Shown piece after piece: positions 6,780 through 64,000 of a DNA stretch of 64,000 nt (positions are counted from its first letter, which is position 1; each line of letters begins with the position of its first letter). The position numbers and the translations under genes were made by a program. Below the pieces are notes generated by a model, which saw only the letters and a program-made list of their open reading frames with translations, was not told the DNA's origin and made no database searches. This DNA comes from Heterodontus francisci. Taxonomy: Eukaryota. The stretch is taken from positions 85,354,109-85,418,108 of the forward strand of contig NC_090379.1 in NCBI RefSeq assembly GCF_036365525.1, read 5' to 3'.

Positions 6780-7512
6780 CCCACCCCCCGCCAATCATTA
6801 TAAAGCGCTCCCCCTGTGCCCAGACCCCACACCCTGCCGTCCAGATCCCATCCCCTGTCCCCAGCCCCGTCTCTGGAAGCCCCCCATCCCGACCCCTCCA
6901 CCCCCCTGTCCCCAGTACAACCCAACCCCTGCCCCCAGCTCCCCCCCCCCCCCCACTCCGGGCCCCAGCTCCCCACCCAACCCCCCCCCATCCCCAGCTT
7001 TCCCCAGCCACCACCCCCCTGTCCCCAGCTTCCCCCCAACCCCTGTCCCCTGCACCCCCACCCCCCTGTCCCCCCACCCTCCATCCCCAGCTCCCCCAAC
7101 CCCCCACTGTTCCCAGCACCCCCACCCCCTGTCCCCAGCTCCCCCCCCAACCTCCCCCCCCATCCCCAGCTTCCCCCCAACCCCTGTCCCCTGCACCCCA
7201 ACACCCCGTACCCCCCCCCAGCCCCCCGTCCCCAGCCCCCCCAACCCCCCACCCCATGCCCCCCCAACCCCCCGTCCCCAGCCCCCCCAACCCCCCACCC
7301 CGTACCCCCCCAACCCCCCGTCCCCAGCCCCCCCAACCCCCCGTCCCCAACACCACCCATACACCCCACCCCGAGCTCCCCCCCAACACCCCAGCCCTCC
7401 CCCCAACCCGTCCCCCACCAAACCCCCCGTCCCCAGCCCCCCCCAACCCATCCCCCCAACCCATCCCCAGTCCCCCACCCCGTCCCCAGCTCCCCCCAAT
7501 CCTCTGTCCCCA
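6780..7512. repeat. C-rich (G-rich on minus strand) degenerate tandem repeat at the start of putative AVEN intron 1
   Basis: Repeated CCCCTGTCCCCAGCTCCCCCCAACCCC-like units. Explains the overlapping Pro/Gly-rich ORFs in several frames. Confidence 0.9.
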
Positions 7513-7789: not shown

Positions 7790-9300
7790 CTGGAGCAGAG
7801 AGAGAGAGAGCGGCAGGGGGATTAGAGCGGACAGCGTCAGAGAGTAGCAGGGGGATTAGAGCAGAGAGAGAGTCAGAGAGAGAGGGGGCAGCAAGGGGAT
7901 TAGAGCAGATAGAGAGTCAGAGAGAGAGGGGGCAGCAAGGGGATTAGAGCAGATAGAGAGTCAGAGAGACAGAGAGTAGCAGGGGGATTAGAGCAGATAG
8001 AGAGTCAGAGAGAGAGGGGGCAGCAAGGGGATTAGAGCAGATAGAGAGTCAGAGAGACAGAGGGCAGCAGGGGGATTGGACAGATAGAGGGGTCAGCACA
8101 GGATTAGAGCGGACAGCGTCAGAGAGTAGCAGGGGGATTAGAGCAGAGAGAGAGTCAGAGAGAGAGGGGGCAGCAAGGGGATTAGAGCAGATAGAGAGTC
8201 AGAGAGACAGAGGGCAGCAGGGGGATTAGAGCAGATAGAGAGTCAGAGAGAGAGGGGGCAGCAAGGGGATTAGAGCAGATAGAGAGTCAGAGAGACAGAG
8301 GGCAGCAAGGGGATTAGAGCAGATAGAGAGTCAGAGAGACAGAGGGCAGCAGGGGGATTGGACAGATAGAGGGGTCAGCACAGGATTAGAGCGGACAGCG
8401 TCAGAGAGTAGCAGGGGGATTAGAGCAGAGAGAGAGTCAGAGAGAGAGGGGGCAGCAAGGGGATTAGAGCAGATAGAGAGTCAGAGAGACAGAGGGCAGC
8501 AAGGGGATTAGAGCAGATAGAGAGTCAGAGAGACAGAGGGCAGCAGGGGGATTGGACAGATAGAGGGGTCAGCACAGGATTAGAGCGGACAGCATCAGAG
8601 AGTAGCAGGGGGATTAGAGCAGAGAGAGAGTCAGAGAGAGAGGGGGCAGCAAGGGGATTAGAGCAGATAGAGAGACAGAGAGACAGAGGGCAGCAAGGGG
8701 ATTAGAGCAGATAGAGAGTCAGAGAGACAGAGGGCAGCAGGGGGATTGGACAGATAGAGGGGTCAGCACAGGATTAGAGCGGACAGCGTCAGAGAGTAGC
8801 AGGGGGATTAGAGCAGAGAGAGAGTCAGAGAGAGAGGGGGCAGCAAGGGGATTAGAGCAGATAGAGAGTCAGAGAGACAGAGGGCAGCAGGGGGATTAGA
8901 GCAGATAGAGAGTCAGAGAGAGAGGGGGCAGCAAGGGGATTAGAGCAGATAGAGAGTCAGAGAGACAGAGGGCAGCAGGGGGATTAGAGCAGATAGAGAG
9001 TCAGAGAGAGAGGGGGCAGCAAGGGGATTAGAGCAGATAGAGAGTCAGAGAGACAGAGGGCAGCAGGGGGATTAGAGCAGATAGAGAGTCAGAGAGAGAG
9101 GGGGCAGCAAGGGGATTAGAGCAGATAGAGAGTCAGAGAGACAGAGGGCAGCAGGGGGATTAGAGCAGATAGAGAGTCAGAGAGGGGGCAGCAAGGGGAT
9201 TAGAGCAGACAGCGTGTCAGAGAGAGAGAGGGGGTCAGCACGGGATTAGAGCAGAGAGAGAAAGAAAGTCAGAGAGAGACAAAAAGGGCAGCAAGGGAGT
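7790..9300. repeat. Purine-rich minisatellite (~41-bp unit) with higher-order structure
   Basis: Unit GGGATTAGAGCAGATAGAGAGTCAGAGAGA(C/G)AG(A/G)GGGCAGCA(G/A)G. A variant block GGATTGGACAGATAGAGGGGTCAGCACAGGATTAGAGCGGACAGC recurs at ~8073, ~8355, ~8549 and ~8743. Confidence 0.95.
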
Positions 9301-9315
9301 CAGAACAGGGAGAGA

Positions 9316-9985: not shown

Positions 9986-10193
9986 TTACTGTGATTTGTG
10001 CACAGTGTCAGAGAGCGGGAGAGTGAGAGAAACTCACAAAGACAAAGGGAGTCAGAGAAAGCAGCAGGGGAAGTAGCACAGCTACCACATCTCAAGAAGG
10101 ATATATTGATCTTGGGAAGAGGGCAGCACATAGTTACCAGAAAAATACTGAGTCTAAAAGTGTTAAGTAATGTGCATAGGTTGCACATTAGGC

Positions 10194-12137
10194 GTACGGG
10201 ACAGGAGGGTGGACACCTGCCTCATCAGCCTGGACCAGGAGAAGGCTTTTGACAGGATATCGCACACCTACATGATGGACATACTTTCCAAAATGGGGTT
10301 TGGGGAGGGAATCTGCAACTGGATCCAACTGCTCTACACAAACATCAGTAGCGCAGTGTCAATCAACGGGTGGGAATCGGAAAGTTTCCCGATCAAATCT
10401 GGAGTCAGACAGGGCTGTCCTCTCTCCCCGGTCTTGTTTGTTTGCTGTATTGAACCCTTTGCTGAGTCTATTAGGAAGGATGCGAGCATAAGAGGGGTGA
10501 CAATCCCAGGCAGCGGAGGCACTCAGGTCAAAACCTCCCTGTACATGGATGACATCGCCGTCTTCTGCTCGGATCCGCTGTCCATGCGCAGACTGATGAG
10601 CATCTGCGACCAGTTCGAACTGGCCTCGGGAGCCAAAGTTAACCACGGCAAGAGTGAGGTCATGTTCTTTGGGAACTGGGCTGACCGATCCTTTGTCCCC
10701 TTCACCGTCAGGTCAGACTACCTGAAGGTGCTGGGGATATGGTTCGGAAGGGCCGGGGCGTGCACCAAAACATGGGAGGAGCGAGTAGCCAAGGTACGAC
10801 AAAAGTTGGGCATGTGGGGGCAGCGATCTCTCTCCATTGTGGGTAAGAACTTGGTCATCAGGTGCGAGGCGCTCACGTTGCTCTACGTGGCGCAGGTCTG
10901 GCCCATACCCCACTCCTGCGCTGTGGCAGTCACCCGAGCCATTTTCCGCTTCATCTGGGGATCTAAAATGGACTGGGTCCGGAGGGACACGATGTTCAAA
11001 TCTCTGGACAAGGGCGGGAAAAATGTACCCAACGTGGCCCTCACCCTGATGACCACCTTCGTGTGCGGCTGCATCAAGCTGCGTGTAGACATCCAGAACG
11101 CAAACTCCAAGTGTCACTACGTGCTGAGGTTCTATCTGTCCCCGGTGTTGCGAAGGATGGGCCTGGGCACATTGCCGCGGAACGCTCCATGCAGTTGGGC
11201 TGTGCCGTACCACCTATCCTTCGTGGAGCAGTTTCTGCAGGAAAACACCTTTGACCACCGGTCCATCAGGCAGTGGTCTGCACGGAATGTCCTCAAGGCC
11301 CTACGGGAAAAGGAGACGGTGGATCCTGTCGGATGGTTCCCCGAGCAGACCGTCAAAGTCATTTGGCGGAATGCCTCATCACCAGAACTTTCAAACAAGC
11401 ACCAAGACGTAGCTTGGCTGGTGGTGAGAAGGGCCCTCCCCGTCAGATCCTTCATGCACACCCGAAGTCTCGCCCCCGCCGCACAATGCCCCCGCGGTGG
11501 CTGTGGTGGGGAAGAGACGGTCGCCCACCTCCTCCTGGAATGTGTCTTTGCAAAGCAGGTGTGGAAAGAGATGCAGTGGTTTTTGTCGAGGTTCATCCCA
11601 AGCAGCTCTGTAACACAGGAGTCTGTGCTCTACGGGCTGTTCCCAGGGACGCACACCGAGATAAACATCAACTGCTGCTGGAGGACTATCAATTCGGTGA
11701 AAGACGCCCTTTGGTCTGCCCGAAACTTGCTGGTCTTCCAGCGCAAAGAGTTGTCCACCACCGAATGTTGCAGACTGGCACATTCCAAGGTCCAGGACTA
11801 CGTGCTGAGGGACGCACTAAAGCTTGGGGCAGCCGCAGCAAAGGCTCAATGGGGAAAGACCACAGTGTAAGGTCCCCCCACCAAGCTGAACTGAGGGGCT
11901 GGATCCATGGGAAACCCCTCGAACTGTATCGTTAATATTTTCAATTGCTGTAAATGTAAAACTGTAATTGGCATGACAATTGTGAAACGGAAGGGTTGTG
12001 AAGAAACTCATGATAGTATTGAAGGAAACTGATCTCCCTTGCAATGTTTGTATTTTTTGGTGCTGATTTGAAACTGTTTGGCAATGTAATTTTTACAGAT
12101 TTTTATGAATAAAGTATATTTTGGAAATAAAAAAAAA
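10194..12137 (+). mobile_element. 5'-truncated L1/Tx1-clade LINE with uninterrupted ORF2 remnant (RT plus C-terminal zinc-binding region)
   Basis: ORF to 11870: LDQEKAFDRI, GVRQGCPLSP, YMDD, and C-terminal CPRGGCGGEETVAHLLLEC. AATAAA ~12108, poly-A ~12129-12137. TSD ATAGGTTGCACATTAGGC at 10176-10193 and 12137-12154. Confidence 0.93.
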
Positions 12138-15209: not shown

Positions 15210-15632
15210 AATTCTTCCATGGGATGTGGGCATCATTGGCAAGGCCAGCATTTGTCGCCTATCCCTAATTGCCCCTTGACAGCTGAGTGAGTTGCTAGGA
15301 CCATTTCAGAGGGCAGTTAACAGTCAAACACCTTGCTGTGGTTCTGGAATCACATGTAGGCCAGACCAGGTAAAGACAGCAGATTTCCTTCCCTACAGGA
15401 CATTAGTAAACCAGATGGGTTTCTATGACAATTAGTGATAGTTTCATAGTACCCTTACTGAGATCAGCCTTCAATTCCAGATTTTTTTAAAATTAATTGA
15501 CTTTATTAACTATTTGAATTTAAATTTCACCTGCTGCTATGGTGGGATTTGAACCCATGACCCCAGGGTATTAGCCTGGGCCTGCTAGATTACTAGCTCA
15601 GTGACATAACCAATATGCCACCATCTCCCCCT
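15210..15632 (-). mobile_element. tRNA-derived SINE (V-SINE-like)
   Basis: Minus-strand head GGGGAGATGGTGGCATATTGGTTATGTCACTGAGCTAGTAATCTAG...GGGTTCAAATCCCACC (A/B boxes). Body with CCAGACCAGGTAAAGACAGCAGATTTCCTTCCCT. Confidence 0.7.
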
Positions 15633-16676: not shown

Positions 16677-17688
16677 CCTCAAAAGCATTTTGTCCACATT
16701 TGTTGTGGAGAATGAGAGACTCACCTGTACCATAGGGAAGGATTCACTTTCTGAAAATAGAAGGTTTTATGCTAGCCTTGCGCACAACTGTGATATCTGT
16801 ATAAGAGGTTGAACAACCACTAAAATGGAGGTAAATTGACTAATGGCCATTCTTGTCATGGCACTTATGACCACCAAGACCTTCATCTAATAAGGTTGGA
16901 AGTGTAAGGAAAACAAAATATGTTTAAATCTGTGCCTTTGAGGCTAACCATCCTTCCAGTGTTCCTCAGGGACAAATCTGATTCATCTTAAATACATTTC
17001 TTAATGCCCATGCCTCCATCCCACTCCCCATAACTTCCCAAATGAGCATGAGTGAGGAAAAAATGTTTTCCCATACCATTGTCCACACTGCTGTCAAATT
17101 TCTTACAGATAATCCACCCTAGGTGACATATCTAACAGTCCTTCATTATTGTTTCACCCTCTTAAATGCAGGGAAATAACAAAGTGACACAATTTTAACA
17201 GCCCAGCCAAGAACAAGATTTTATCATGTGGAAAATCATGGACACCAATCTCTTACCAATTTGATATGCAATGTAATGATATACAAACATTATGTTACGT
17301 AATTTTCACATTGCTGACCAAGATCACCATCAACTTAGCAATCTCAGATCAACTTGTGGTCCAAAATTGAGGTAAGGGTCTCGAAAAGGTTGCTGGGCTA
17401 AGAATAAAAATCAAACTTCCTGATAAATTTGCAGGGAAAATATTTCCTCCTATAATTACCTTGTTATTTTGCAACAAAATTAAAATGCCTACATTTGATG
17501 TTATGATTTTAATCACAGATGGCAGCCAAACATTAATGGAAAACGAATGATGGTGTAATGAGAAGCTTTTTATGTTGTCTGATGCTAATAGTAAAAATAC
17601 ATAAAATTAAATAACATCAGAATTATTTACACATGAATAGAGATTATAAACTTTACAAGTATAGAGGCTCAAAAGTCCATAAATGGTC

Positions 17689-18140
17689 TCAGTGGTTTGA
17701 CAACTCTTGTTCGGAGAGTTTGCGTCTCAACTGTTGCTGTTTTTTCTGAGGTTTCTCCCTCTCTGCATTCAGTTTCTGTTGCTCTGCCTTCAGCCGGCTA
17801 ATATTCTTTGTTATTTTTCTCAAAATGACCACTTTTGAGGCCTTGTCATTCTTGGAAAGCTCCAGCATCTCATCGCGAAGATCCAACAGACTGTGCTTCA
17901 ACTCAGTCCTCCTCTACTTCTTCAGGACATTGTGTGTCCTTCGCCTCTCCTCATCCTCCATGTCTGAAGGCTCGGGGCTCAAAGTTGAGGAATTGTGGGG
18001 GAAGAGTACTTGGTCTCATGGAGGTACCTGTCCGTTCTGGTTGGTTGTGGTGCTGGCGGTTCTCTAGAGAGCAGAAGTGAAGGCTAGTTGTGCTGTTGCT
18101 GGGTTTCCAGACTGCACCGTTTGATAATGGTCAGACTCTG
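17689..18140 (-). pseudogene. Myc-family C-terminal fragment (Myc box IV, basic-HLH-leucine zipper), disabled
   Basis: LTIIKRCSLETQQQHN* (cf. c-Myc LVLKRCHVSTHQHNY), then after one frameshift SDMEDEERRRTHNVLKK*RRTELKHSLLDLRDEMLELSKNDKASKVVILRKITKNISRLKAEQQKLNAEREKPQKKQQQLRRKLSEQ (cf. [51 protein letters not shown]). Stops at 18084-18086 and 17914-17916. Confidence 0.92.
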
Positions 18141-18174
18141 CAAGCAGGTTCCTGTCCTTGGAGGTTTCCAGTTG

Positions 18175-19217
18175 GCAATGCTCTTGTGGTTAGTTATGAT
18201 GTTGAGGTCCTTACACGCTGGTAGTCCTCCCATTGCTGATCCGCTCGTGTCTACTAGGTAGAGCGTTTATGGTTTCCATGCCAACTTGCCATAGCTGCAC
18301 TGCCGTGTTAGTGTGCCACTGCAAGGGATGGGTGACCGATTATATGCAGATAGCTTGGCAGTTGTCGATTGTAACGTTGACTTCCAATGACTCTGCTACA
18401 TATCTTTGCGGATTCGGACTGGTAGGATATTTGCACTAGTGCTGGTGTCAACCTTGACCTTGAGTGTATGTTTGCCAGCTTTCTTTGAATACATGATGTG
18501 AATAGTGGCGAAAGCTTCCAATTGTTTGACTTCATCAACATGATGTGTCAGGTTCACAATGTGAAACACCTGTTCATCTTCTGTCTGAGTACTTCTCTCT
18601 GAGTCTTGTCTTAGGTCTGCTTTGCTGTGGACCTCATGTATTGGCTTGCGTTTATGCGGGTCTCTGGCACTTTCTTTGCTGCTGTTGCCCTGTTGTCTGT
18701 TTGTTTGCATCTGACTGTGACTTCTGGCTCAGACTTTGGAGCCAGATTTCTTGCATAGGTGGGCCCAGTGTCCTTTTGCACCGCATACCTTGCACAAGTC
18801 ACGAAATGCAGGACATCTACGCTGTGAGTGGGACCAACCACACTTACTACACTGCTTGCTTGTCCTTTCCGACCTGGTTATGGTGCTGATACTGTTGGCT
18901 ACACCTAGTACTTGTAGGTGCTGTTGTCCAGTTACAAAGGCTTCATATTTCTTGCCATCTTCCAGCAGTGCACCATTGCTGTGACCTTTCCTTTTCCCCA
19001 AGAGGTCTTTCTGAAATGCAACAATGGGTGTTGATATGATCATCAGCTCCATTATACAGTCTGACAGCTCAACTTCTGAAAAATTGCACTCATTGACCTT
19101 ACTACAAGATCGACTGACAAATTGGTCTATTGATTCCTGTGGCTGTTGCCTGTAGGACATCAATTCTAGGCAGTGAATTCTAAAATTCACTCTTAATCTG
19201 AGTTGATCTTCCAGCAC
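18175..19217 (-). pseudogene. Decayed Gypsy gag-protease
   Basis: RQQPQESIDQFVSR, CSKCGWSH...CPAFRDLCKVCGAKGHWAHLCKK, VKVDTSTSANILP...KLSAYNRSPIPCSG...LVDTSGSAMGGLPACKDLNII. One frame throughout, with in-frame stops at 18729-18731, 18396-18398 and 18267-18269. Confidence 0.88.
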
Positions 19218-20939
19218 TTTCCATATCTCAAAACAGCTGTTTATTAACAGCTAACAAGTATATACAGTGTCGAGCTAACCATTTACAGGACCTGCCTCTT
19301 GGTGTTAGAGTAGCAAGAGTGAATCTGGCAAGTAATCACGTGACTGCATCCTGGCACATAGCTCATTTGCATACTAAGATCTTAAAGGGACATCACTGTT
19401 AAAGGCAATCACACCAGATGGGACATACACATTTAATTTCTTGGAGGTATGCATCACACTGTTTTTTGAAAGGACCTACTGACCTGGACATGAAATTATC
19501 AGAATTCTCAAGTTAATCAGAATCACTCAGTTTAAGCTACTTCAAGTTTTGAATTCAATTCAGCTGTCAACTCCACTGAAAAGCTTATTTTACATAACAA
19601 TCCTTTTTTCTACTGTTTATAACAATGTCAGTGCCCAGCACCAAGATGCAATATACAGAGAAAACCAAGAATTTATTTGCAATCTTGTAACAAATATGGA
19701 CAGGTCTACACAATGTGGAGGAGGCATTTTTCTGGTTCGACGAGGATCAGCTGTTTTCTTGTTTAATGGAAGGAAAATCAGACAAATTCTTCTATAGGCA
19801 TGCACTCTGACCCATGCTGATTTTCCAGTATTCACTGTGCTGAAGTGATCCAGTATACCTGCTTTGCCAAATAAGAGAACTGTAAATTTCTGATATAAAA
19901 GCCATATTCCCTTCTTTATTATTAATCAACAATTTTTTTCAAAGGTAAGGGTCTCAAGCAATATGGATCAAAGTCAGATTAATAGAGTTGAGGTGTAGAT
20001 CAGCCATGGTGGAGCAGGTTCAAGGGGCTAATGGCCCACTCATGTTCTTGTGTTCCTAAAACACGAGCTGTCTATATTCGATAGTGGGACCATGTTGCCC
20101 TCTTTATCACATTAATAATATAATAAGATGAATTTACCTTATAGTTGAATTTATGGATATAGTATACTTTTGAACCAATGCATTAACAAGAGAACTATGT
20201 GTTCTGATACTACTGTTGATCGCAAAAGCAACTGAATTATAATTTTAATGACAAAAAGCTGCCATTTGAAAAAAAAATCAAGTGAAGCAGCAATTGTGCC
20301 AGCTAAGCAGACTGTAGCTGTTGGCTCTCATCCACTTGCAACCTGCTCCATCTCCTATGTTGCGAATCAGATAGTGATAAATAAAATTGATTAATTATCA
20401 TGTCTATCACTCCAGCTGATCTGCAGAGACATGAGGCCAGGGGGCCTTTCTATATGCCAAATATAGAGCACTGTATCCTGTAAGATCTTTGGAGCACTTT
20501 AAATTACCTTTAAATAAATATAGCACACCAATCCTTCAACTGAATACTTTTGCCCACATGATAGTTTGTCAAAACCTACTTTTAAGAATTTTTGATGGTC
20601 AAATTTGGATTTAAACAATTCCATTCAATCATTTTAGAATGTGACTCATCTGAGCTACCTCTATCAAACAGTGTAACCTTAATGTACAATTATTTTAAGT
20701 CCTGTTTTTCAGTGGATAAATGCAATGTGTGATATGGTATTTATCTATCACAGGGGGCTCAAGTGCAAAACCTTGTCAGTGCTTAGATGTTCACAATCCA
20801 TCTTAATACTCTGGAATCACTTCCTGATTGCTCTTCAGCGACCTCTGCTGGAAAGTGTGAGAACACAATCAGGGTTCAGCTGTGACGTTACTCTTGCCTG
20901 AATTATCTACTAAGACACCTTAGATACCTTAGTAAGAAT

Positions 20940-21195: not shown

Positions 21196-22130
21196 ACGAC
21201 GATTTTTTTTTCAAAAGTCAGTTTCAGTGATTTTAAATCAGGTTGCTCGCAGGTGGAAAACTGAACATCCTTAATAAAAATTCTTTTTTTTGGTGATAAA
21301 CCCATTTTCATCTGTATTGGTGAAACTGTACCAGGTTATCACTTATCACATCAAAGGATACTGTTTAATTGAAAGAAAAATAAAGAAATAAGACCAATTG
21401 CGCTGTTCATTGAAAATGCTACATTTTATGCAAATTGATTTTATTGGACACTCAAACTGTAACCTAATCAGCAGAAAATCTAGTGTATTTTGGATGCAAG
21501 TTCTCGATTGTGCCCAAAGTAGAAAGTCTAGTTCATAATGTTTTGACTTAAATGATCAACGTTTGGGCACAGCCCTTTTCTGCTTCTGATGAGGATTATT
21601 TTATTGCAGTATTTGTGGCACAGCAACATTTCTGGAACATGTTCAACTCCAAATATCGGTTTTATATAATGCTGCATTAAGAATTTTATATTACTGTAGC
21701 AATATTATATTTGTATTGTGATAAACTACGAGACATTTGAATTACTGATAGTAGTTCTGGAACTAGTTGAAGACTGGGACTAGTTAAAGAGAAAGGGCCT
21801 AAAATGTGCTCAAAATTGTATTGGTTATTCCAGTGCCTTTTCTTTAACCAGTCAAGTCAATCAAAATGATTGACCATATGGCGAAATTATAAGATATTAT
21901 ACTGGATACTGGAAAACAAGTAGTAAGTCACTAAAGCAAAACGTTTTAGTAATCATAATTTTTATTTTTCAGAAAAATCAAAGAAGCAAACAGGAAAGAT
22001 ATGTGCAGAAGAAATTACTCTATTATCATCCCAAGTTGATGTCATTGATATTAGATATCTCATCTGCCTTTAACAGAGTAAAGCGCATTGGTCATTGTTT
22101 ACTATAGATATTACTCCAGTTCCTAAAATC

Positions 22131-23639
22131 ATGGGATCAGATCTTTTTAAGAATACATCTCTAAACAGCAATATCTCCAATCAAGAGGCGGGACACGGCC
22201 TTTTGAAAGTAGTATCAATTGCCACCATTACTGCAATAGTAAGCTTGATAACAATAATTGGCAACATTTTAGTCATTGTGTCATTCAAAGTGAACAGCCA
22301 GCTTAAGACTGTGAACAATTATTACTTGTTAAGTCTGGCCTGTGCTGATCTCATCATTGGAGTGTTTTCAATGAATCTCTACACTTCTTATATACTAATA
22401 GGTTACTGGTCGCTAGGAAATTTGACATGTGACCTGTGGCTGGCACTGGATTATGTAGCTAGTAATGCTTCTGTCATGAACTTGCTCCTCATAAGCTTTG
22501 ACAGGTATTTCTCAATCACACGACCTTTGACCTATAGGGCTAAACGTACACCTAAAAGGGCTGGTATAATGATTGGACTTGCTTGGTTAATATCCTTTAT
22601 ATTATGGGCTCCTGCAATTTTATGCTGGCAGTACTTGGTTGGAGAAAGAACAGTTCGTCCAAATGAGTGTCAGATACAATTTTTGTCTGAGCCCATTATT
22701 ACCTTTGGTACAGCAATAGCTGCTTTCTATATTCCTGTGTCGGTGATGACGATATTGTACTGTCGTATCTACAAAGAGACCGAAAGACGCACTAAGGATC
22801 TGGCAGAACTTCAAGGATCAAATCTAGGGTCTGAAAATGAAGTCGCTTCCTCCAGAAAGACTCTGTTGACATCCTGCTTTGGTTGTGAAGGACGCAAGCT
22901 TTGTAACAGGGAAAGATGCCAAGTATCATGGTCTTCTTCAAACATAAGCACAACAGTGACTCTAAGATCCACACACACACCAAATGTCACAGAAGAATGG
23001 TTAAAAAGTGACAAACTGACTTCTTTTGTTAATTATCCAACATCAGAGGATGATGAAAAGCTTACCACAAAATCAGTCTGCTCAGTGTCTCAGGGACAGA
23101 ATCAGAATGATGAGTGTACTGGTGAAGATGACACAAGGATGTCCTTGGAAGATGTTCTTGTAAAAAAACAAATGCAGAAAGATAAAAAATATGTTTCCTA
23201 CAAATGTAATAAATTGGCCGTTAAAAATAGCAGTTTTTCAACAACTCCAGATACAAGTAATGGTTGCACAGAAATAAAAATAACACCTTGTTCATCTGCT
23301 GACCCAAAAGCCCCATTTATGAAAAATCTTGATCAAAACCTTGGAAGTCAGATCACCAAGAGAAAACGTTTGGTTTTGATCAAAGAAAAAAAGGCAGCTC
23401 AGACTCTTAGTGCTATCCTATTAGCTTTCATTATCACCTGGACACCTTACAATATTATGGTATTAGTGTCAACATTCTGTTCAAACTGTATACCACGATC
23501 ACTATGGCATCTTGGATATTGGTTGTGCTATGTCAACAGCACAGTCAACCCCATGTGCTATGCTCTATGTAACAAAACATTCCGTAAGACTTTTAAAATG
23601 TTGTTATTATTTCAATGGAAGCAGAAAAGAACTGAATAA
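22131..23639 (+). CDS. CHRM5: Muscarinic acetylcholine receptor M5 (502 aa, single coding exon)
   Basis: 7TM motifs: [104 protein letters not shown] at 22131 (AAAATCATGG). Upstream acceptor TTTATTTTTCAG ending at 21972. Flanked by AVEN and EMC7 as in other vertebrates. Confidence 0.96.
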
Positions 23640-24489: not shown

Positions 24490-25960
24490 TGTCAGAGTCT
24501 TAAGCACATAATCTAGGCGTGAGATGTCAGTGCAGTGCTGAGGGAGTGCTGCAGTGTTGGAGGTGCTGTGCTTTGTATGAAGCATTAAACCAACGCCACT
24601 CTCAAAACATAAAAGATCCCATGGCACTATTTGAAGGAGAGCAGAGGAATTCTCCTTCTGGTGTTCTGGTCAATGTTTAACCCTCAACCAACATTAGTGA
24701 CAAAGAAAGATTATCTGGTAATTTATTTCATTGCTATTTAAAAAAGAACAAAGAACAAAGAAAATTACAGCACAGGAACAGGCCCTTCGGCCCTCCAAGC
24801 CTGCGCCAATCCAGATCCTCTATCTAAACATGTCGCCTATTTTCTAAAGGTCTGTATCTCTTTGCTTCCTGCTCATTCATGTATCTGTTTAGATACATCT
24901 TAAAAGATGCTATTGTGCCCGCGTCTACCACCTCCGCTGGCAACGCGTTCCAGGCACCCACCACCCTCTACGTAAAGAACTTTCCACGCATATCCCCCCT
25001 AAACTTTTCCCCTCTCACTTTGAACTCGTGACCCCTAGTAATTGAATCTCCCACTCTGGGAAAAAGCTTCTTGCTATCCACCCTGTCTATACCTCTCATG
25101 ATTTTGTACACCTCAATCAGGTCCCCCCTCAACCTCCGTCTTTCTAATGAAAATAATCCTAATCTACTCAACCTCTCTTCATAGCTAGCGCCCTCCATAC
25201 CAGGCAGCATCCTGGTGAACCTCCTCTGCACCCTCTCCAAAGCATCTACATCCTTTTGGTAATGTGGCGACCAGAACTGCACGCAGTATTCCAAATGTGG
25301 CCGAACCAAAGTCTTATACAACTGTAACATGACCTGCCAACCCTTGTACTCAATACCCCGTCCGATGAAGGAAAGCATGCCGCATGCCTTCTTGACCACT
25401 CTATTGACCTGCGTTGCCACCTTCAGGTAACAATGGACCTGAACACCCAAATCTCTCTGTACATCAATTTTCCCCAGGACTTTTCCATTTATTGTATAGT
25501 TCACTCTTAAATTGGATCTTCCAAAATGCATCACCTCGCATTTGCCCTAATTGAACTCCATCTGCCATTTCTCTGCCCAACCCTCCAATCTATCTATATT
25601 CTGCTGTATTCTCTGACAGTCCCCTTCACTATCTGCTACTCCACCAATCTTAGTATCGTCTGCAAACTTGCTAATCAGACCACCTATACTTTCCTCCAAA
25701 TCATTTATGTATATCACAAACAACAGTGGTCCCAGCACGGATCCCTGTGGAACACCACTGGTCACACGTCTCCATTTTGAGAAACTCCCTTCCACTGCTA
25801 CTCTCTGTCTCCTGTTGCCCAGCCAGTTCTTTATCCATCTAGCTATTTGTGGGAGTTTACTCTGCTTCCTATATTATACTACATTTCAAAGGTATTAATT
25901 AGCTATAAAGCAGTTTGGGACATCCTGATGTCATGAAAGGTGCAATATAAATGCTAGTCT
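24490..25960 (+). mobile_element. SINE split by a CR1 insertion
   Basis: SINE body 24490-24739 resumes at ~25842 (GCTATTTGTGGGAG...ATATAAATGCTAGTCT). Confidence 0.65.
24740..25841 (-). mobile_element. Young 5'-truncated CR1 LINE
   Basis: ORFs 25547-25795 (GVPQGSVLGP, FADDTK) and 24968-25534 (LVRPHLEYCVQFWSP). (TTCTTTG)n 3' tail. Flanked by direct repeat GCTATTT. Confidence 0.93.
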
Positions 25961-30467: not shown

Positions 30468-32383
30468 TTATAATTCATCATGTGGGCTATTGCTACAGTT
30501 GACTAGCTTGCTATTAGGTTTTACCATCATCCATGCATACTTGCACAGGTTATCTTTATTACAATCATTCTGCCAGTACACAACATTTCTTCTGTTCAGG
30601 TTGGCTCCAGCACAGGCATTGTACCACCATCCTCCACCTGGTATCCCATGGAGCTCTAGTTTAGCACAGTTCTGAAAATAGTTGTCATTATCACGATCTT
30701 TTGTAGTGAATTCTTGGTTGTCATGATTGTAAGTTTCTGTATCTTGTGTCAGAGCATCAGTTGCTGTACCTTGATAAAGACCAAGTCTGATTTTGTATCT
30801 GGATTCTTCACCTTCAATGCGGAATGGGTCATATTCTCCCCATTTCATTTCTCCATTCATATCAATTAGCTTTATTCCCAACTTGTAAGGACTTGGCTTG
30901 CTAGTAAGTCTGTGCATGAACTCGTTGCCCAGCCAATGATCACCATTAACCAAACCAAATCCTTGCTTGTAGTCCTGCCAAGTTCTGTCAAAGTCCAAGG
31001 AGCTATTAGCGGTGATATGCTGGATCACTGTCCAGCCACCTTCTGCACTCTGCATGTCACAATAGACAACGATAAGATCCTTCATTAGTCGAATGACATA
31101 AAGGCCATCTTTAGCCTTACCTTCTGACTGTTGAAAGATCTCATAACAGTCATTCTGAAAACCTGCACAACACATAGGCAACAATTAAAATAACATTACA
31201 ACCATCTTAGGGATTTCACTTTTTTGCATCTCTTGCAAGAACTCATTGGAAGTAAGACATTATGTGCTGTATCAGAATTGAGTTTATTGTGCAACATAAC
31301 GTCTGGCAAATAATTCACATATACACAGTACTTTATTTTTCTGTCAGCTAAATGTCATAGGCTTATTTCAGTGATAAAATAACATGTTAATAAAAGCCTG
31401 AACTGGTATTTCAGTAGTAGCACTGTATGTTGAATATACTTTACTGTGGTAAGAATGACAAAAATGATATAATGGCAGAATTTTACAATTGGCTGGAGGT
31501 CCCGCCCACTGGCCAAAAAGTCGGGGGCGAGCCTGCCTCCACCAGGCCTGGAAGCCATGCTATGCTATTACGTGGCCCAGGCCTTAATTGGCCTCGGGTG
31601 GAACCTCTGCCCTCTGAGGCAGGAAGTCCCGCCTCCAAGAGCTGCTTCCCAATCAGCAGCCCTGCATCTCTCAGTCCCAGCAGCGCCACCGGGAGTGGTG
31701 GCCACTGCTGGGACTGCACCCAGCCAGCACAAAGGTATGGTGCCTTATCAGGGACAATCGGCCGGGCCCTGGCAAGGCAAGGGGTGGGGTGGGGGGGTCG
31801 ATTGGTAGGGGTGGAAAATGTAGTGCAGTGGGGGTGCCCGATCAGGAGGGCCACAAACCCCCCAGCCTGCAATGAGGCCGCCAGGTTTTACTGAGCAGCA
31901 TCCTGGAGGTCCAGAGCCACCCGCCCGCCGCTGGTAATATACCAGTGACAGCGGTGGCAAGAGGCCTTTAAGTGGCAGTTAATTGGCCACTTAAGGACCT
32001 TAATTGACCTGGGGCAGGCGAGCTGTTTTTTGCCGCTGCCGCCGCTCGTAAAATTGCAGCGGGAGCGGGAAGGTGATGGGAACAGCACCACCCCCTGCCT
32101 CCCATTCCTTGCTGTCTCCAGCCTGCTCCTGTGGGGGCATAAAATTCCGGCCAATGATCAATGCTCCAATTGTCATTATTAACTCACAAAGATATGCACA
32201 CTACACTGAATTGGAAGTTAATTCAAACTTACCACCTTCTTGTTTCATATTGATGATATGAACATAATCCTTTGAAGATAGGAGATGTGCATTTTCCAGT
32301 ACGACTGGTAGTTCAGCACTTGCCAAAATGTTGCACTTCAGCGATGTAAGCAGAATAAAGGTGAAAAAGCCCCGGAAATTCAT
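30468..32383 (-). CDS. Secreted fibrinogen C-terminal domain (FReD) protein, fibrinogen-like protein 1-like; join(32233..32383, 30468..31162), 281 aa
   Basis: Exon A: signal peptide MNFRGFFTFILLTSLKCNILA...KQEG, 151 nt, phase-1 donor G|GTAAGT. Exon B after TGTGCAG: DCYEI...VYCDMQSAEGGWTVIQ...FDRTWQDYKQGFG...HWLGNE...FTTKDRDND...GGGWWYNACAGANLN. Phases match and total length is 846 nt. Upstream acceptor at 32420 implies a non-coding first exon. Confidence 0.9.
31474..32152. mobile_element. Harbinger-like MITE in the intron of the FReD gene
   Basis: Imperfect TIRs GGCAGAATTTTA / TAAAATTCCGGCC; AAT on both flanks (possible 3-bp TSD); related to 1520-2108. Confidence 0.75.
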
Positions 32384-39706: not shown

Positions 39707-42615
39707 TTGCCAGTTCTGATGGAAGGTCACAGAACTGAAGCGTTAACTCTGCTTCTTTCTCCACAGATGCTGCCTGACCTTCTGAGTATTTCCAGCACTT
39801 TCTGCTTTTATTTCAGATTTCCAGTATCTGCAGAATTTTGCTTTTATTTTTGTGTTTAATTCACTGCCATTTCTCTTCCAGGAATGCCTACCTGGAAGAA
39901 GTTCTGATCTTCTCTCCGACGGGATTTCCATTTGTCTCTTTTACCTTGTTCACCTTCATTGCTTTCTATTTACCTCCAAGTGTTTGATAAAGTGTCTACC
40001 AAAACTCACAGCCACATCTCCTTCCTCAATGACCGTCTCCGGCTCTGACCTATTCCATGTGGATTTCAACTGAAGTTCCATCCTTCATGTTTTCAATCCA
40101 CCCAGGATTACAGGTATTTTTGAGAAATACAACATTTCTTGGACTGCTGCTCTCACCACATTCTGCGATCCACTCTCAGTCCCATGCGCCGTCACATGTA
40201 CACACTTGACCTCTCTCTCCAGAAGCACCGACTCACCTTATCTCAAAGCTGTTCTGCTCCAGAGTTTCATTTCGTCCTTCGTCTTATCCGAAGCATTAAC
40301 AAAAAAACTTTTTCTCTTTCTTTCAGGTGTTAAGGAACGTAAGCTCCAGTAGCTCATGGGTATCAAGGCACTTCCAGATCCTCCTTCCCCTTCACTTCCC
40401 TCTGACCCCATCCCTTCTCCTAATCTGACCCCGTGCTGTGTATTCACAATACCCTCTGACCTTCCCATCTCTGACGCTGAACGATCTGTACTTAACAAAG
40501 GACTCAGTTTTATCCCCTTATGCCCCCAACTCAATGAATTTTGTGCTCGGCATGACATTGTGCTCTTCTTCCATTGTCTTCGACTCCAGGCTTACTTCTT
40601 TGACCAGGAGTCCTCCCCGTGACTGTCACTGACTTCATCTCCTCTGGAGGTCTTCCCACTACAACTTCCAACCTCACAGTCCCGCAGCCTGAACAACCTG
40701 CTTTTACCCTCTTCCCAAAATCCACAAACAGGACTGTCCTGGCAGACCCATCGTTTCAGCCTGTTCCTGCCCCACTGAACTTTTGCTTCCTATCATGATT
40801 CTATTTTTTCTCCCCTGGTCCAGTCTCTTTCCACCTACATCCGTGACTCTTCTGACACCCTACGTCATTTCTACAATTTCCAGTTTCTTGGCCTTAACCG
40901 CCTCCTCCTCTCTGTGGACGTTCAATCTCTCTACACCTCCATCCCCCACCAAGACGGTTTGAGGGCTCTCCACTTCTTCCTTGAACAGAGGTCCAACCAG
41001 TCCCCATCCACCACCACCCTCCTCCACCTGGTTGAACTTGTTCGCACATTGAACAACTTCTCCTTCAACTCAACTCATTTTATTCAAGTTAAAGGTGTTA
41101 CTAGGTACCTGCATGCATCCTAGTTATGCCTGGCTTTGTGTGGGATATATCAAACATTTCTTGTTCCAGTCCTACTCAGGCCCCCTCCCTTACCTCTTTT
41201 TCCAGTACAGTATCGCTGCCGCTTCCTGCTCTCGTTCTGAATTGGAAAACGTCATCAACTTTGCTTCCAATTTCCACCTTTCTCTCACCTTTACATGGTC
41301 TATCTCTGACATTTCCCTTCCCTTCCTTGATTTCTCTGTCTCCATCTCGGGGGATAGGCTGTCCACTAATATTCATTATAAGTCCACCGACTCCCAAAGC
41401 GACCTTGACTACACTTCCTCGCACCCTGTTTCCTGTAAGGACTCTATCCCATTCTACCAGATTCTCCGCCTTGTCTGTTCTGATGATGCAGCCTTCCAAA
41501 ACAGCACTTCTGACATGTTTTCCTTTTTCCTCAAATGAGGATCCCCCGCACTGTGGTTGACAGGGCCCTCAACCGTGTCTGACCCATTTGCTGCACTTCT
41601 GCCCTCACCCCTGCCCCTCCCAGAACCACAACAGGGTGCCCCTTGTCCTCACTTTCCACCCCACCAGCCTCCACATCCAAAGGATCATCCTCCACCATTT
41701 CCGCCACCTCCAGCGTGATGCCACCACCAAACACATCTTCCTTTCCCCTCCCATGTCAGCATTCCGAAGGGATTGTTCCCACCGCAACACCCTGGTCCAC
41801 TCCTCCATCACTCCCGACACCACCTTCCCATGCAATCGCAGGAGGTGTAATACCTGCCCTTTTACCTCAACGCTCCTCACCCTCCAAGGCCCCAAACACT
41901 CCTTCTAGGTGAAGCAGCGATTTACTTGCACTTCCTTCAATTTAGTATACTGTATTCATTGCTCACAATGCCAGTCACCTCTACATTGGGGAGACCAAAC
42001 CCAGATTGGGTGACTGCTTTGCAGAACACCTCCACCCAGTCCGAAAGCATGACCCCGAGCTTCCGGTTACTTGCCATTTCGACACACACCTCTGCTCTCA
42101 TGTCCACATTTCTGTCCTTAGCCTGGTGCAGTGTTCCAGTGAACATCACCACAAGCTCAAGGAACAACACCTCATCTTCCGATTAGGCACTCAATATTGA
42201 GTTCAACAATTTCAGAGCAGGATTGGCCCTTTTTTATTTTTTATTTCCTTTTTTAAATTTTGTTTTTTAATCATGTGCCTGTTTTTCATGTGTTTTTAGA
42301 CAGAGCTGCTCATTATTCTACCATTAACAAACTCTCTGGTCTAATGCTTTATCTTTCACAACCATTAACATGCTCTTTGCCTTTGTCCCATGACATCTTT
42401 GTTATTTAATCTCTCCTGTCCTCTGCTCTATCACACACCTTCCCTTTTGTTCTCTTCCCCACTACTACCCCCCACTACACTCGCTTAAAACCTAATACTT
42501 TTGTTACCTTTGCCAGTTCTGATGAAAGGTAACAGATCTGAAATATTAACTCTGCTTCTCTCTCCACAAATGCTGCCAAACCCGCTGAGTATTTCCAGCA
42601 CTTTCTGTTTTTATT
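39707..42615 (+). mobile_element. Degenerate Penelope-like retroelement (RT plus GIY-YIG endonuclease) with terminal direct repeats
   Basis: ERSVLNKGLSFIP; LPKIHKQDCPGRPIVSAC (~40710-40770); DVQSLYTSIPHQDGL; LPFLDFSVSI; VPLVLTFHP; CNRRRCNTCPF; LVYCIHCSQC...YIGET...DCFAEHL. Direct repeat TGCCAGTTCTGATG..AGGT.ACAGA...TTAACTCTGCTTCT at ~39707 and ~42511. Confidence 0.9.
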
Positions 42616-49684: not shown

Positions 49685-61566
<11,882 letters not shown>

Positions 61567-62485: not shown

Positions 62486-64000
62486 ATAAGAACATAAGAA
62501 CTAGGAGCAGGAGTAGGCAATTCAGCCCCTCGAGGCTGCTCCGCCATTCAAAACGAACATGGCTTATCTCATCTTGGCCTCAACTCCACTTTCCTGCATG
62601 TTCTCCATAACCCTTCAACCTATTTCTAATTAAAAATCTGTCTATCTCCTCCTTAAATTTACCCAATGTCCCGGCATCCACTGCACTCTGGGGTAGTGAA
62701 TTCCACAGACTCACAACCCTTTGAGAAAAGTAATTTCTTCTAATCTCTGTTTTAAATCTGCTACCCCTTATCCTAAAGCTATGACCTAGATTGCCCCACA
62801 AGAGGAAACATCCTCTCTACGTCTACGTTATCAATCCCCTTAATCATCTATATACCTCAATTAGATCTCCTCTCATTCTTCTAATCTCCAGAGAGTAAAG
62901 GCCTAAACTGCTCAATCTCTCTTCATAAGACAAGTCCCCCCCCATCTCTGGAATCAATCTAGTGAACCTCTTCTGAACTGCCTCCAATGCACCTACATCC
63001 TTTCTCAAGTAAGGGGACCAAACCTGTACGCAATACTCCAGGTGTGGTCTCACTAATGCCTTGTACAGTTGCAGCAACACTTCCCTACTTTTATACTCTA
63101 TTCCTTTAGCAATAAATGCCAAAATTACATTTGACTTCCCTATCACCTGCTGTACCTGCAAACTAGTTTTCTGCGATTCATGCACGATGACACCCAGATC
63201 CCTCTATACCGAAGCACTCCGAAGTTTCTCTCCATTAATTTTTTAATGGCTTTCTATTCTTCCAACCAAAATGGATAACCTCACACTTATCCATGTTAAA
63301 ATCCATCTGCCAAATCTTGGCCCATTCACCTAACCTATCCATATCCATTTGTAAATTTCTTATTTCTTTATTGCAACTTACTGTCCCACCTATTTTAGTG
63401 TCATCTGCAAATTTGGCTATAGTACCTTCTATCCCTGCATCCAAGTCATTTATATAGATTGCAAATAGTTGGGGCCCGAGGACTGAACCCTGTGGCACCC
63501 CACTAGTTACATCTTGCCACCCAGAAAAAGACCCATTTATCCCGACTTTCTGTTTTCTGTTGGTTAGCCAATCCTCTGTCCAAGCTAATAAATTGCCCCT
63601 AACCCCATGTGAACTTACCTTGTGTATTAACCTTTTGTGCGGCACCTTATAAAATGCCTTCTGGAAGTCCAGATATACTACATCTACAGGATCCCCATTA
63701 TCCACTTCGCTTGTTACAGCTTCGAAGAACTCTAGCAAATTAGTCAAACACGATTTACCCTTCATAAAACTATGCTGACTCTGATGGATTGCGTTTTGAC
63801 TTTCTAAATGTCCTGTTATTACTTCCTTAATAATGGATTCTAACAATTTCCCAACGACAGATGTTAAGCTAACTGGTCTTTCGTTTCCTACTTTCTGCCT
63901 CCCTCCCTTTTTGAATAAGGGCATTATATTAGCTTTTTTGCAATCCACTGGAACCTTTCCCATATCCAGAGAATTTTAGAATATTATAACCAATGGATCC
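62486..64000 (-). mobile_element. CR1 LINE ORF2 (RT) 3' half; runs off window end
   Basis: ORFs 63235-63963 (YLDFQKAF, GVPQGSVLGP, FADDTK), 62844-63185 and 62580-62801; CATAAGAACATAAGAA tail. Confidence 0.93.

Follow-up and report, generated by a model that had tools for sequence, protein, structure and literature searches.

A minus-strand reading frame resembling the gag and protease of a retroelement runs into a piece of Myc in a stretch of 64,000 nucleotides from Heterodontus francisci (contig NC_090379.1; this whole stretch is referred to here as the window). The locus raises the question of whether a retroelement fused to Myc was once encoded here, how the piece was captured, and whether it did anything for its carrier. 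An earlier reading of the window from its letters alone (the sequence-only reading) proposed an ancestral Gag-protease-Myc polyprotein, from which the protease could have released a Myc fragment able to bind Max and E-boxes. We examined the locus together with its relatives in the same genome, where capture point, donor, helper and later classes can all be read. They form a fossil record of germline oncogene transduction outside retroviruses, and their thousands of copies allow one to ask whether a captured proto-oncogene is cargo, an asset or a liability. The answer that we favour, with moderate confidence, is that Myc was a passenger of a Gypsy element, captured, spread as cargo and decayed in all sampled copies; the passenger was possibly also disarmed.

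The copy in the window

The window copy is one decayed element on the minus strand, from 19416 to 17554, between perfect 5-bp target-site duplications (CCATC on the minus strand) at 19417-19421 upstream and 17549-17553 downstream. It opens with a 5' LTR remnant (19225-19416) that starts with TG and comprises the first ~190 of ~260 nt; the rest of this LTR, the primer-binding site, the leader and the start of gag are missing (about 1 kb after LTR position 190). Then follow, on the same strand, a 5'-truncated capsid-like region of gag (18852-19228), which aligns from residue 71 of the related polyprotein P0002; two zinc knuckles of the nucleocapsid (18753-18851), seen in the translation, with a Pfam zf-CCHC_3 match below the cut-off (E 0.001) and a weak match to retroviral NC structures (E 0.026); a gag-protease linker (18561-18752, limits approximate) with a stop at 18731; and an aspartic protease region (18183-18560) with its catalytic Asp codon at 18449 and stops at 18398 and 18269. 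The protease is assigned by alignment to Gypsy polyproteins and by what we take to be the D-T-G protease motif, whose usual Gly at the third position is replaced in the window copy; a Pfam protease match is absent.

The protease gives way in frame, at 18183/18182 (host coordinate L051:4864), to the captured last exon of the host gene mych (17719-18182, residues 17-173), 87% identical to positions 4864-4393 of the host locus L051; the sequence-only reading had placed this junction too far downstream, at about 18150-18175. The captured exon contains a segment that we presume to be Myc box IV (18083-18134), ending in the stop at 18086; a basic region (17908-17934) with His at 17934, Lys in place of Glu at 17922, a stop at 17918-17916 and Arg at 17910; and a helix-loop-helix with leucine zipper (17719-17907), cut before the host stop codon and in a different frame from gag-protease (Pfam HLH E 2.3e-5). 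The element sequence resumes at 17586-17718 with the end of pol and the 3' region, the polypurine tract being deleted in this copy, and ends in CA with the last 32 nt of the 3' LTR (17554-17585).

As the sequence-only reading had it, translation from 19217 follows a single minus-strand frame through gag, the zinc knuckles, the linker and the protease into the Myc box IV region, and one frameshift separates this box from the basic region; we locate it at 17990-18000, near 17995, and among 50 class D copies (the window's class, see below) it is found in one, the window copy itself. The isolated stops that had been reported are also present, their first bases lying at 18731, 18398, 18269 and 18086, the positions given earlier being those of their last bases; the stop in the basic region lies beyond the part then described. 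The order of pieces, LTR positions 1-190, an internal fragment and the last 32 nt of the LTR, has overlaps of about 4 nt at both breaks; such an architecture could have come from a pair of deletions or from templated insertion into a solo LTR.

Surroundings of the element

A single-exon muscarinic receptor (7tm_1, E 9e-65), presumably CHRM5-like, lies on the plus strand at 22074-23639, 2.7 kb from the element; its frame ends 13 codons before a second stop, and the intervening stretch resembles the usual C-terminus, which suggests a recent premature stop. On the minus strand, an open fibrinogen C-terminal domain of 238 aa (30468-31184, E 1e-49) is probably an exon or a single-exon gene. Tandem arrays occupy 7839-9310, 6782-7482 and 50980-52530 (one array of 44/106-nt units, two G/C-rich with units of about 23-39 nt), and reverse transcriptase (RT) remnants of non-LTR retrotransposons, which we take to be Tx1/L1-, CR1- and Penelope-like, are found at 10167-11870, 24968-25546, 41053-41538, 57693-59177 and 63235-63975. 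A tRNA-Thr called by ARAGORN at 15535-15627 (minus strand) is likely the head of a tRNA-derived SINE.

Element family and parent

The element is a non-autonomous derivative of a Ty3/Gypsy LTR retrotransposon. Its gag-protease frame, with stops written as X, is 35-36% identical over 98-99% of its length to four single-ORF polyproteins, one of which carries RT, RNase H and integrase in the Ty3/Gypsy order. Copies that are more complete retain LTRs of about 260 nt, TG..CA at their ends, together with primer-binding site and polypurine tract. Of 42 elements, 20 could be scored for a target-site duplication and 22 could not; 12 of the scorable ones have a duplication of 5 bp with 0-1 mismatch. Mean identity within LTR pairs is 84% in class A (n=9), 83% in class B (n=5) and 86% in class D (n=27). 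From the single ORF and the 5-bp duplication we suspect a Mag-like clade. An endogenous retrovirus was considered and rejected: all 4 longer homologues are Gypsy-type polyproteins, and in the ~5.3-kb parents the integrase tail and the 3' LTR are not separated by a gap large enough for env.

A 2-kb DNA query of the genome returned 8,714 first-look candidates; among 40 scored, 39 other places are 81-85% identical. Queries with single parts gave 2,888 first-look candidates (myc last exon), 948 (first coding exon), 4,089 (protease) and 2,179 (integrase tail), figures that are not copy numbers. Copies were sampled from the top-scoring lists (about 150 of some thousands) and therefore lean to the best preserved. 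The parent family, located by a DNA query with the integrase tail, is present without myc in the same genome: pol lies upstream in 28/30 integrase-tail matches, all 20 refetched parent copies are free of mych, and parent copies cover P0002 in the order protease-RT-RNase H-integrase.

Donor gene and capture

A profile search with Myc_N found three intact host myc genes, which we take to be MYC-, MYCN- and mych-like (the last also from identity to the public protein P0125), and over a hundred weaker places; the 15 of these that were examined are all element copies. A MYCL-like gene was not seen among 119 scored of 1,624 Myc_N candidates, which gave these three intact genes only. The copies are 85-92% identical to the last exon of L051 (on contig G000:C16), a locus with two coding exons, and 66-68% identical to the other two paralogues, over the bHLH only. 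The L051 protein is identical to P0125 (myelocytomatosis oncogene homolog, Heterodontus francisci), which has orthologues in six other sharks and rays. Since L051 is the closest gene and its protein is identical to P0125, the donor is mych, the fourth Myc paralogue, of which a zebrafish gene has been described (PMC2323570).

Altogether 119 loci were sampled and 5 duplicates removed, and the remaining 114 were grouped by 5' junction. In class A (50 copies) a pol linker, modally of 137 nt, precedes the join to host position 6811; class B (9 copies) joins 6774, class C (2 copies) 6735 and class D, that of the window (50 copies), 4864; three single cases make up the remaining junctions. In the longer copies pol continues for 137 nt more and exon 3 is preceded by 191 nt of spliced exon 2; because they extend past 18183/18182, the window junction is secondary and not the capture point. 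The proposal of an ancestral fusion thus stands for the source elements, whose Gag-protease-Myc frame was continuous, but not for 18183/18182, which is a later shortening.

Capture starts at residue 116 of the host first coding exon, and boxes of the MBI and MBII type are absent from every class, as had been noted for the window. Among the 61 copies with both exons the spliced distance is exact in 49, 3 nt short in 9 and otherwise short in 3; all shortfalls lie within 11 nt and none of the 61 is unspliced. The 3-nt-short junction (9/61 class A-C copies) coincides with a tandem AG at the host acceptor, and a second splice form or a lost repeat codon is possible. The captured piece ends before the host stop, carries neither 3' UTR nor poly(A), and replaces pol. 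At the 5' switch, host mRNA and parent have 7 nt in common, exact in 9/14 parent copies that could be aligned; at the 3' switch they have 6 nt in common, in 15/20 parent copies. An end of the myc part at host 4373 was discarded as a chance likeness to the integrase tail, the switch lying at about 4391. One copy also holds a second, inverted myc piece of 120 nt downstream (L005:3600-3719).

We infer template switching as the mechanism behind this structure. A single-ORF Ty3/Gypsy retrotransposon would have co-packaged spliced mych mRNA, and its reverse transcriptase would have jumped to this mRNA and returned where the two templates had a short word in common. The tail of the first coding exon and most of the last exon would thereby have taken the place of RT, RNase H and the integrase core, with both ends in frame. 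LTRs, primer-binding site, polypurine tract, gag and protease would have remained in the product, and autonomous helpers could then have copied it to the order of thousands of sites, classes B, C and D arising presumably via deletion or recombination with a second helper subfamily. In fact, the gag-protease of class A equals that of the sampled parent (net about 0.001), that of class D differs by 0.04-0.05 and class B is intermediate; moreover, 2/35 class-D-type proteases run on into RT and are nearer to D than to A. From these distances we infer that the 5' half of class D probably derived from a second helper subfamily.

Reading frame and decay

A frame continuous from gag into Myc, expected if the fusion was ancestral, is borne out by the copies: no break is fixed in any class, and neither the stops nor the frameshift of the window are present in all of them. 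The window stops at 18731, 18398 and 18269 occur in 0/45, 1/48 and 3/48 other class D copies, respectively, and the basic-region stop in 0/49. Being private or rare, these breaks are post-insertion decay, and the source elements encoded Gag-protease-Myc. Recurrent stops in myc (up to 21/48) fall at three CGA codons of host sequence. All sampled copies are now dead: none of 70 is free of stops from gag to zipper, and the myc part alone is unbroken in 7/97. A domesticated fusion gene was rejected on this count, although a rare intact locus may lie beyond the about 150 copies sampled.

Protease and myc are in phase in 49/49 scorable class D copies, 27/41 of class A, 5/7 of class B, 2/2 of class C and 0/2 single cases; a second set gives 27/28 for D, 3/3 for B and 1/2 single cases. 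The lower figure for class A arises because the anchors span the 137-nt linker, a site of private indels. The original 3' junction is in the phase of the integrase tail in 17/20 parent copies; on the myc-bearing copies, tblastn matches to pol C-termini were for the most part too weak, and the 3' phase was taken from the parents. Since copies in one class descend from one event, the real test lies in the independent junction classes. Of the words common to gag-protease and mych, 36-37% are in phase; by modal state all four 5' classes are in phase, against about 0.36 expected for each, a chance of about 0.017. The five in-frame junctions need a cause, which argues against pure cargo. The frame probably persisted because its loss would have meant an early stop followed by a long 3' tail, and not for the sake of Myc activity.

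State of the Myc moiety

The basic region's His/Glu/Arg triad specifies CACGTG, and a Glu-to-Gln change abolishes DNA binding (PMC7226237). In the window's class D this Glu is kept in only 2/49 copies; it is kept in 11/41 of class A, 0/9 of class B and 0/2 of class C, and is mostly replaced by Lys. The complete triad is found in 9/37 copies of class A, 0/9 of B and 2/48 of D. Judged by these residues, the sequence-only reading was probably wrong in expecting a Myc fragment that binds E-boxes. The loss of Glu is not a CpG effect, the preceding base being G in 38/39 class A copies. A motif that is NLS-like by resemblance to a known one keeps its first Lys in 37/49 copies of class A and 2/49 of class D. 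Class D is also without the pol linker after the protease and without what we take to be the EEIDVV box.

The helix-loop-helix and three of the zipper leucines are well preserved; the position of the fourth is hydrophobic in 47/49 class D copies, and elsewhere in HLH and zipper the residues are retained at background level. Element-lineage changes shared in class D fall in eight of nine cases at residues invariant in five other sharks, where 5.4 would be expected (P 0.06). Two of the three triad residues are among these nine changes (P about 0.01, post hoc); taking the triad changes together with the NLS-like Lys and a zipper position gives P 0.0007, also post hoc.

Selection and age

An unrooted tree of 91 of the 114 rows, for which 137 CpG-prone columns were masked and 23 rows with gaps left out, has a star-like shape and terminal branches of 0.074; it resolves neither a root nor the order within classes. 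We computed dN/dS from the net divergence between classes A and D, which needs no ancestral sequence. The gag capsid has a ratio of 0.07-0.10 and the protease one of 0.21-0.32 (P<=0.01), both below the neutral baseline, and the zinc knuckles have 1.1-1.9. For myc the ratio is 0.47-0.69 (P(dN>=dS) 0.10-0.27), not below the baseline, which within classes is 0.60-0.86 for myc; the bHLH-zipper alone gives 0.27-0.52 (P 0.11-0.26), which is not significant but lies under the baseline. The sequence-only reading had proposed dN/dS on the Myc part along internal branches; between classes, no purifying selection on it is detected, at the low power set by a net myc dS of 0.025-0.035. Gag capsid and protease have a far higher dS (0.11-0.21), and this difference fits swapped 5' halves; with the 5' half of D from another helper, the constraint on gag and protease may be that of the helpers and say little on the fusion.

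Of 21 residue changes in the host lineage since it parted from other sharks, 12 are also found in class A, three of them ambiguous; with about half of the changes in class A, the capture is old. The host-to-A dS of the last exon (0.07-0.10) is close to the terminal branch length, which points to amplification soon after capture. Absolute dating by a pedigree rate of 7e-10 per generation (PMC10587355) gave implausible ages and was abandoned for relative dating. Among the 120 best matches listed, proteins above 60% identity bear one species label only, weak evidence for an element confined to a narrow lineage. Four sequencing runs presumed to be RNA (two studies, two organism labels) have contigs over all 30 bins, and the class D junction is bridged by contigs in 4/4 of them, where DNA may be present; contigs on the myc part include host mych, the RNA status is a guess, and we draw no conclusion on transcription.

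Cargo, asset or accident

If the Myc part was cargo, it would have drifted, with an early loss of the E-box Glu and, in class D, loss of the NLS-like Lys. Some features can be read otherwise. The capture was in frame at both ends, the Glu survives only in part of class A (11/41) through a loss that is not a CpG effect, and two of the three base-contact residues are among the nine class D changes (P about 0.01, or 0.0007 with the NLS-like Lys and the zipper position, both post hoc); the Myc part might then have aided the earliest element, of class A with the triad intact, through germ-cell Myc/Max or nuclear import of Gag, and have been disarmed later because it harmed the host cell. We consider this sequence of aid and disarming rather unlikely: once the Glu is gone, the change of His adds nothing, the zipper change is conservative, the NLS assignment is one of resemblance to a motif, and a class A gag-protease equal to the parent leaves little time for selection. 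A protease-freed box IV-bHLH-zipper fragment that dimerises with Max would fit the frame open through the zipper in A, B and D source elements, with no break fixed, and the dimer-surface residues kept. After the loss of Glu, such a fragment could only sequester Max, in an Id-like manner, and not occupy E-boxes as Omomyc does. Retroelement proteases normally act inside cytoplasmic particles, class D is without the pol linker after the protease, and purifying selection on myc is not significant; although truncated Myc dominant negatives are known (PMC7226798), we hold a freed fragment to be quite improbable.

The frame itself could be a coincidence of junctions that fell in phase unselected, as shared words do 36-37% of the time; scorable copies number 10 in class B and 2 in class C, and 3/4 single-copy junctions are out of phase. 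These last probably arose by deletion after insertion, where frame need not be preserved, and the chance of about 0.017 for the four 5' classes becomes lower with the 3' junction, so that we give coincidence very little credence. A LINE-made processed myc pseudogene, or a DNA-level insertion into an existing LTR element, would also be spliced and 5'-truncated, but the piece stops before the host stop without 3' UTR or poly(A), pol is replaced and not interrupted, and microhomology is present at both ends; such an origin is next to impossible. The boldest reading joins several of these threads: a germline Gypsy element transduced Myc as acute retroviruses do, the fusion mattered, the frame was selected at five junctions, Myc aided the spread and was then disarmed stepwise at DNA-contact and NLS-like residues, and the near-identical copies, in their thousands, may feed small RNAs against host mych. 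It is attractive but, in our judgement, doubtful, and the passenger reading is the one that we retain.

Comparison with known systems

The six public proteins P0005-P0010, named 'N-myc proto-oncogene protein-like', all lack the basic-region Glu, and P0007 and P0009 contain protease-end/myc junctions; they look like element copies, and Myc gene counts in that annotation would then be inflated. Other protease-Myc fusion proteins were not found among the best 150 of 305 matches. The Solemya velum polyproteins P0001 and P0003, together with P0002 and P0004, are single-ORF Ty3/Gypsy proteins 35-36% identical in gag-protease; they are autonomous and without host cargo, and not close enough to be the helper, which belongs to the shark genome itself.

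The acutely transforming retroviruses MC29, MH2, CMII, OK10 and FeLV-myc carry an intronless c-myc fused to gag and depend on helpers; they are somatic, and keep the transactivation boxes and the DNA-binding triad. The shark element shares with them a replication-defective, helper-dependent LTR element and an intronless myc fused to gag; it differs in being a germline Gypsy element that carries mych, without MBI/MBII and mostly without the Glu.

LTR-mediated retrocopies, among which HERV-K/FAM8A1 and maize Bs1 are cited as examples (Tan et al. 2016, PMC5131818), are in the available text of that article alike in three respects: a partial spliced mRNA replaces internal ORFs, a median microsimilarity of 6 bp is found at both switch points, and the product is re-mobilised as a non-autonomous element. 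The shark copies have intron loss, ORF replacement, both microsimilarities and no poly(A), as such retrocopies do; they differ from those described there in a Myc-family cargo, a gag-pol frame kept at both ends, thousands of candidate copies and several amplified classes. The mechanism is thus already known, and we did not find this cargo or scale before: in the portions available of the literature searched, which comprised neither repeat libraries nor subscription journals, there is no report of a myc-bearing LTR element in sharks or of a proto-oncogene amplified in this way, and the tables of Tan et al. (PMC5131818) could hold a myc case.

In the diamondback moth, according to the text available on PxyMasc (PMC9674220), a regulatory gene has a family of retrocopies, as here, and small RNAs silence the parent gene. 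Omomyc (PMC7226798) and Hydra Myc3 (PMC10177328) resemble the captured piece in having a bHLH-zipper without N-terminal boxes; as their accessible descriptions state, both bind E-boxes with Max, whereas most copies of the shark element lack the Glu that this needs.
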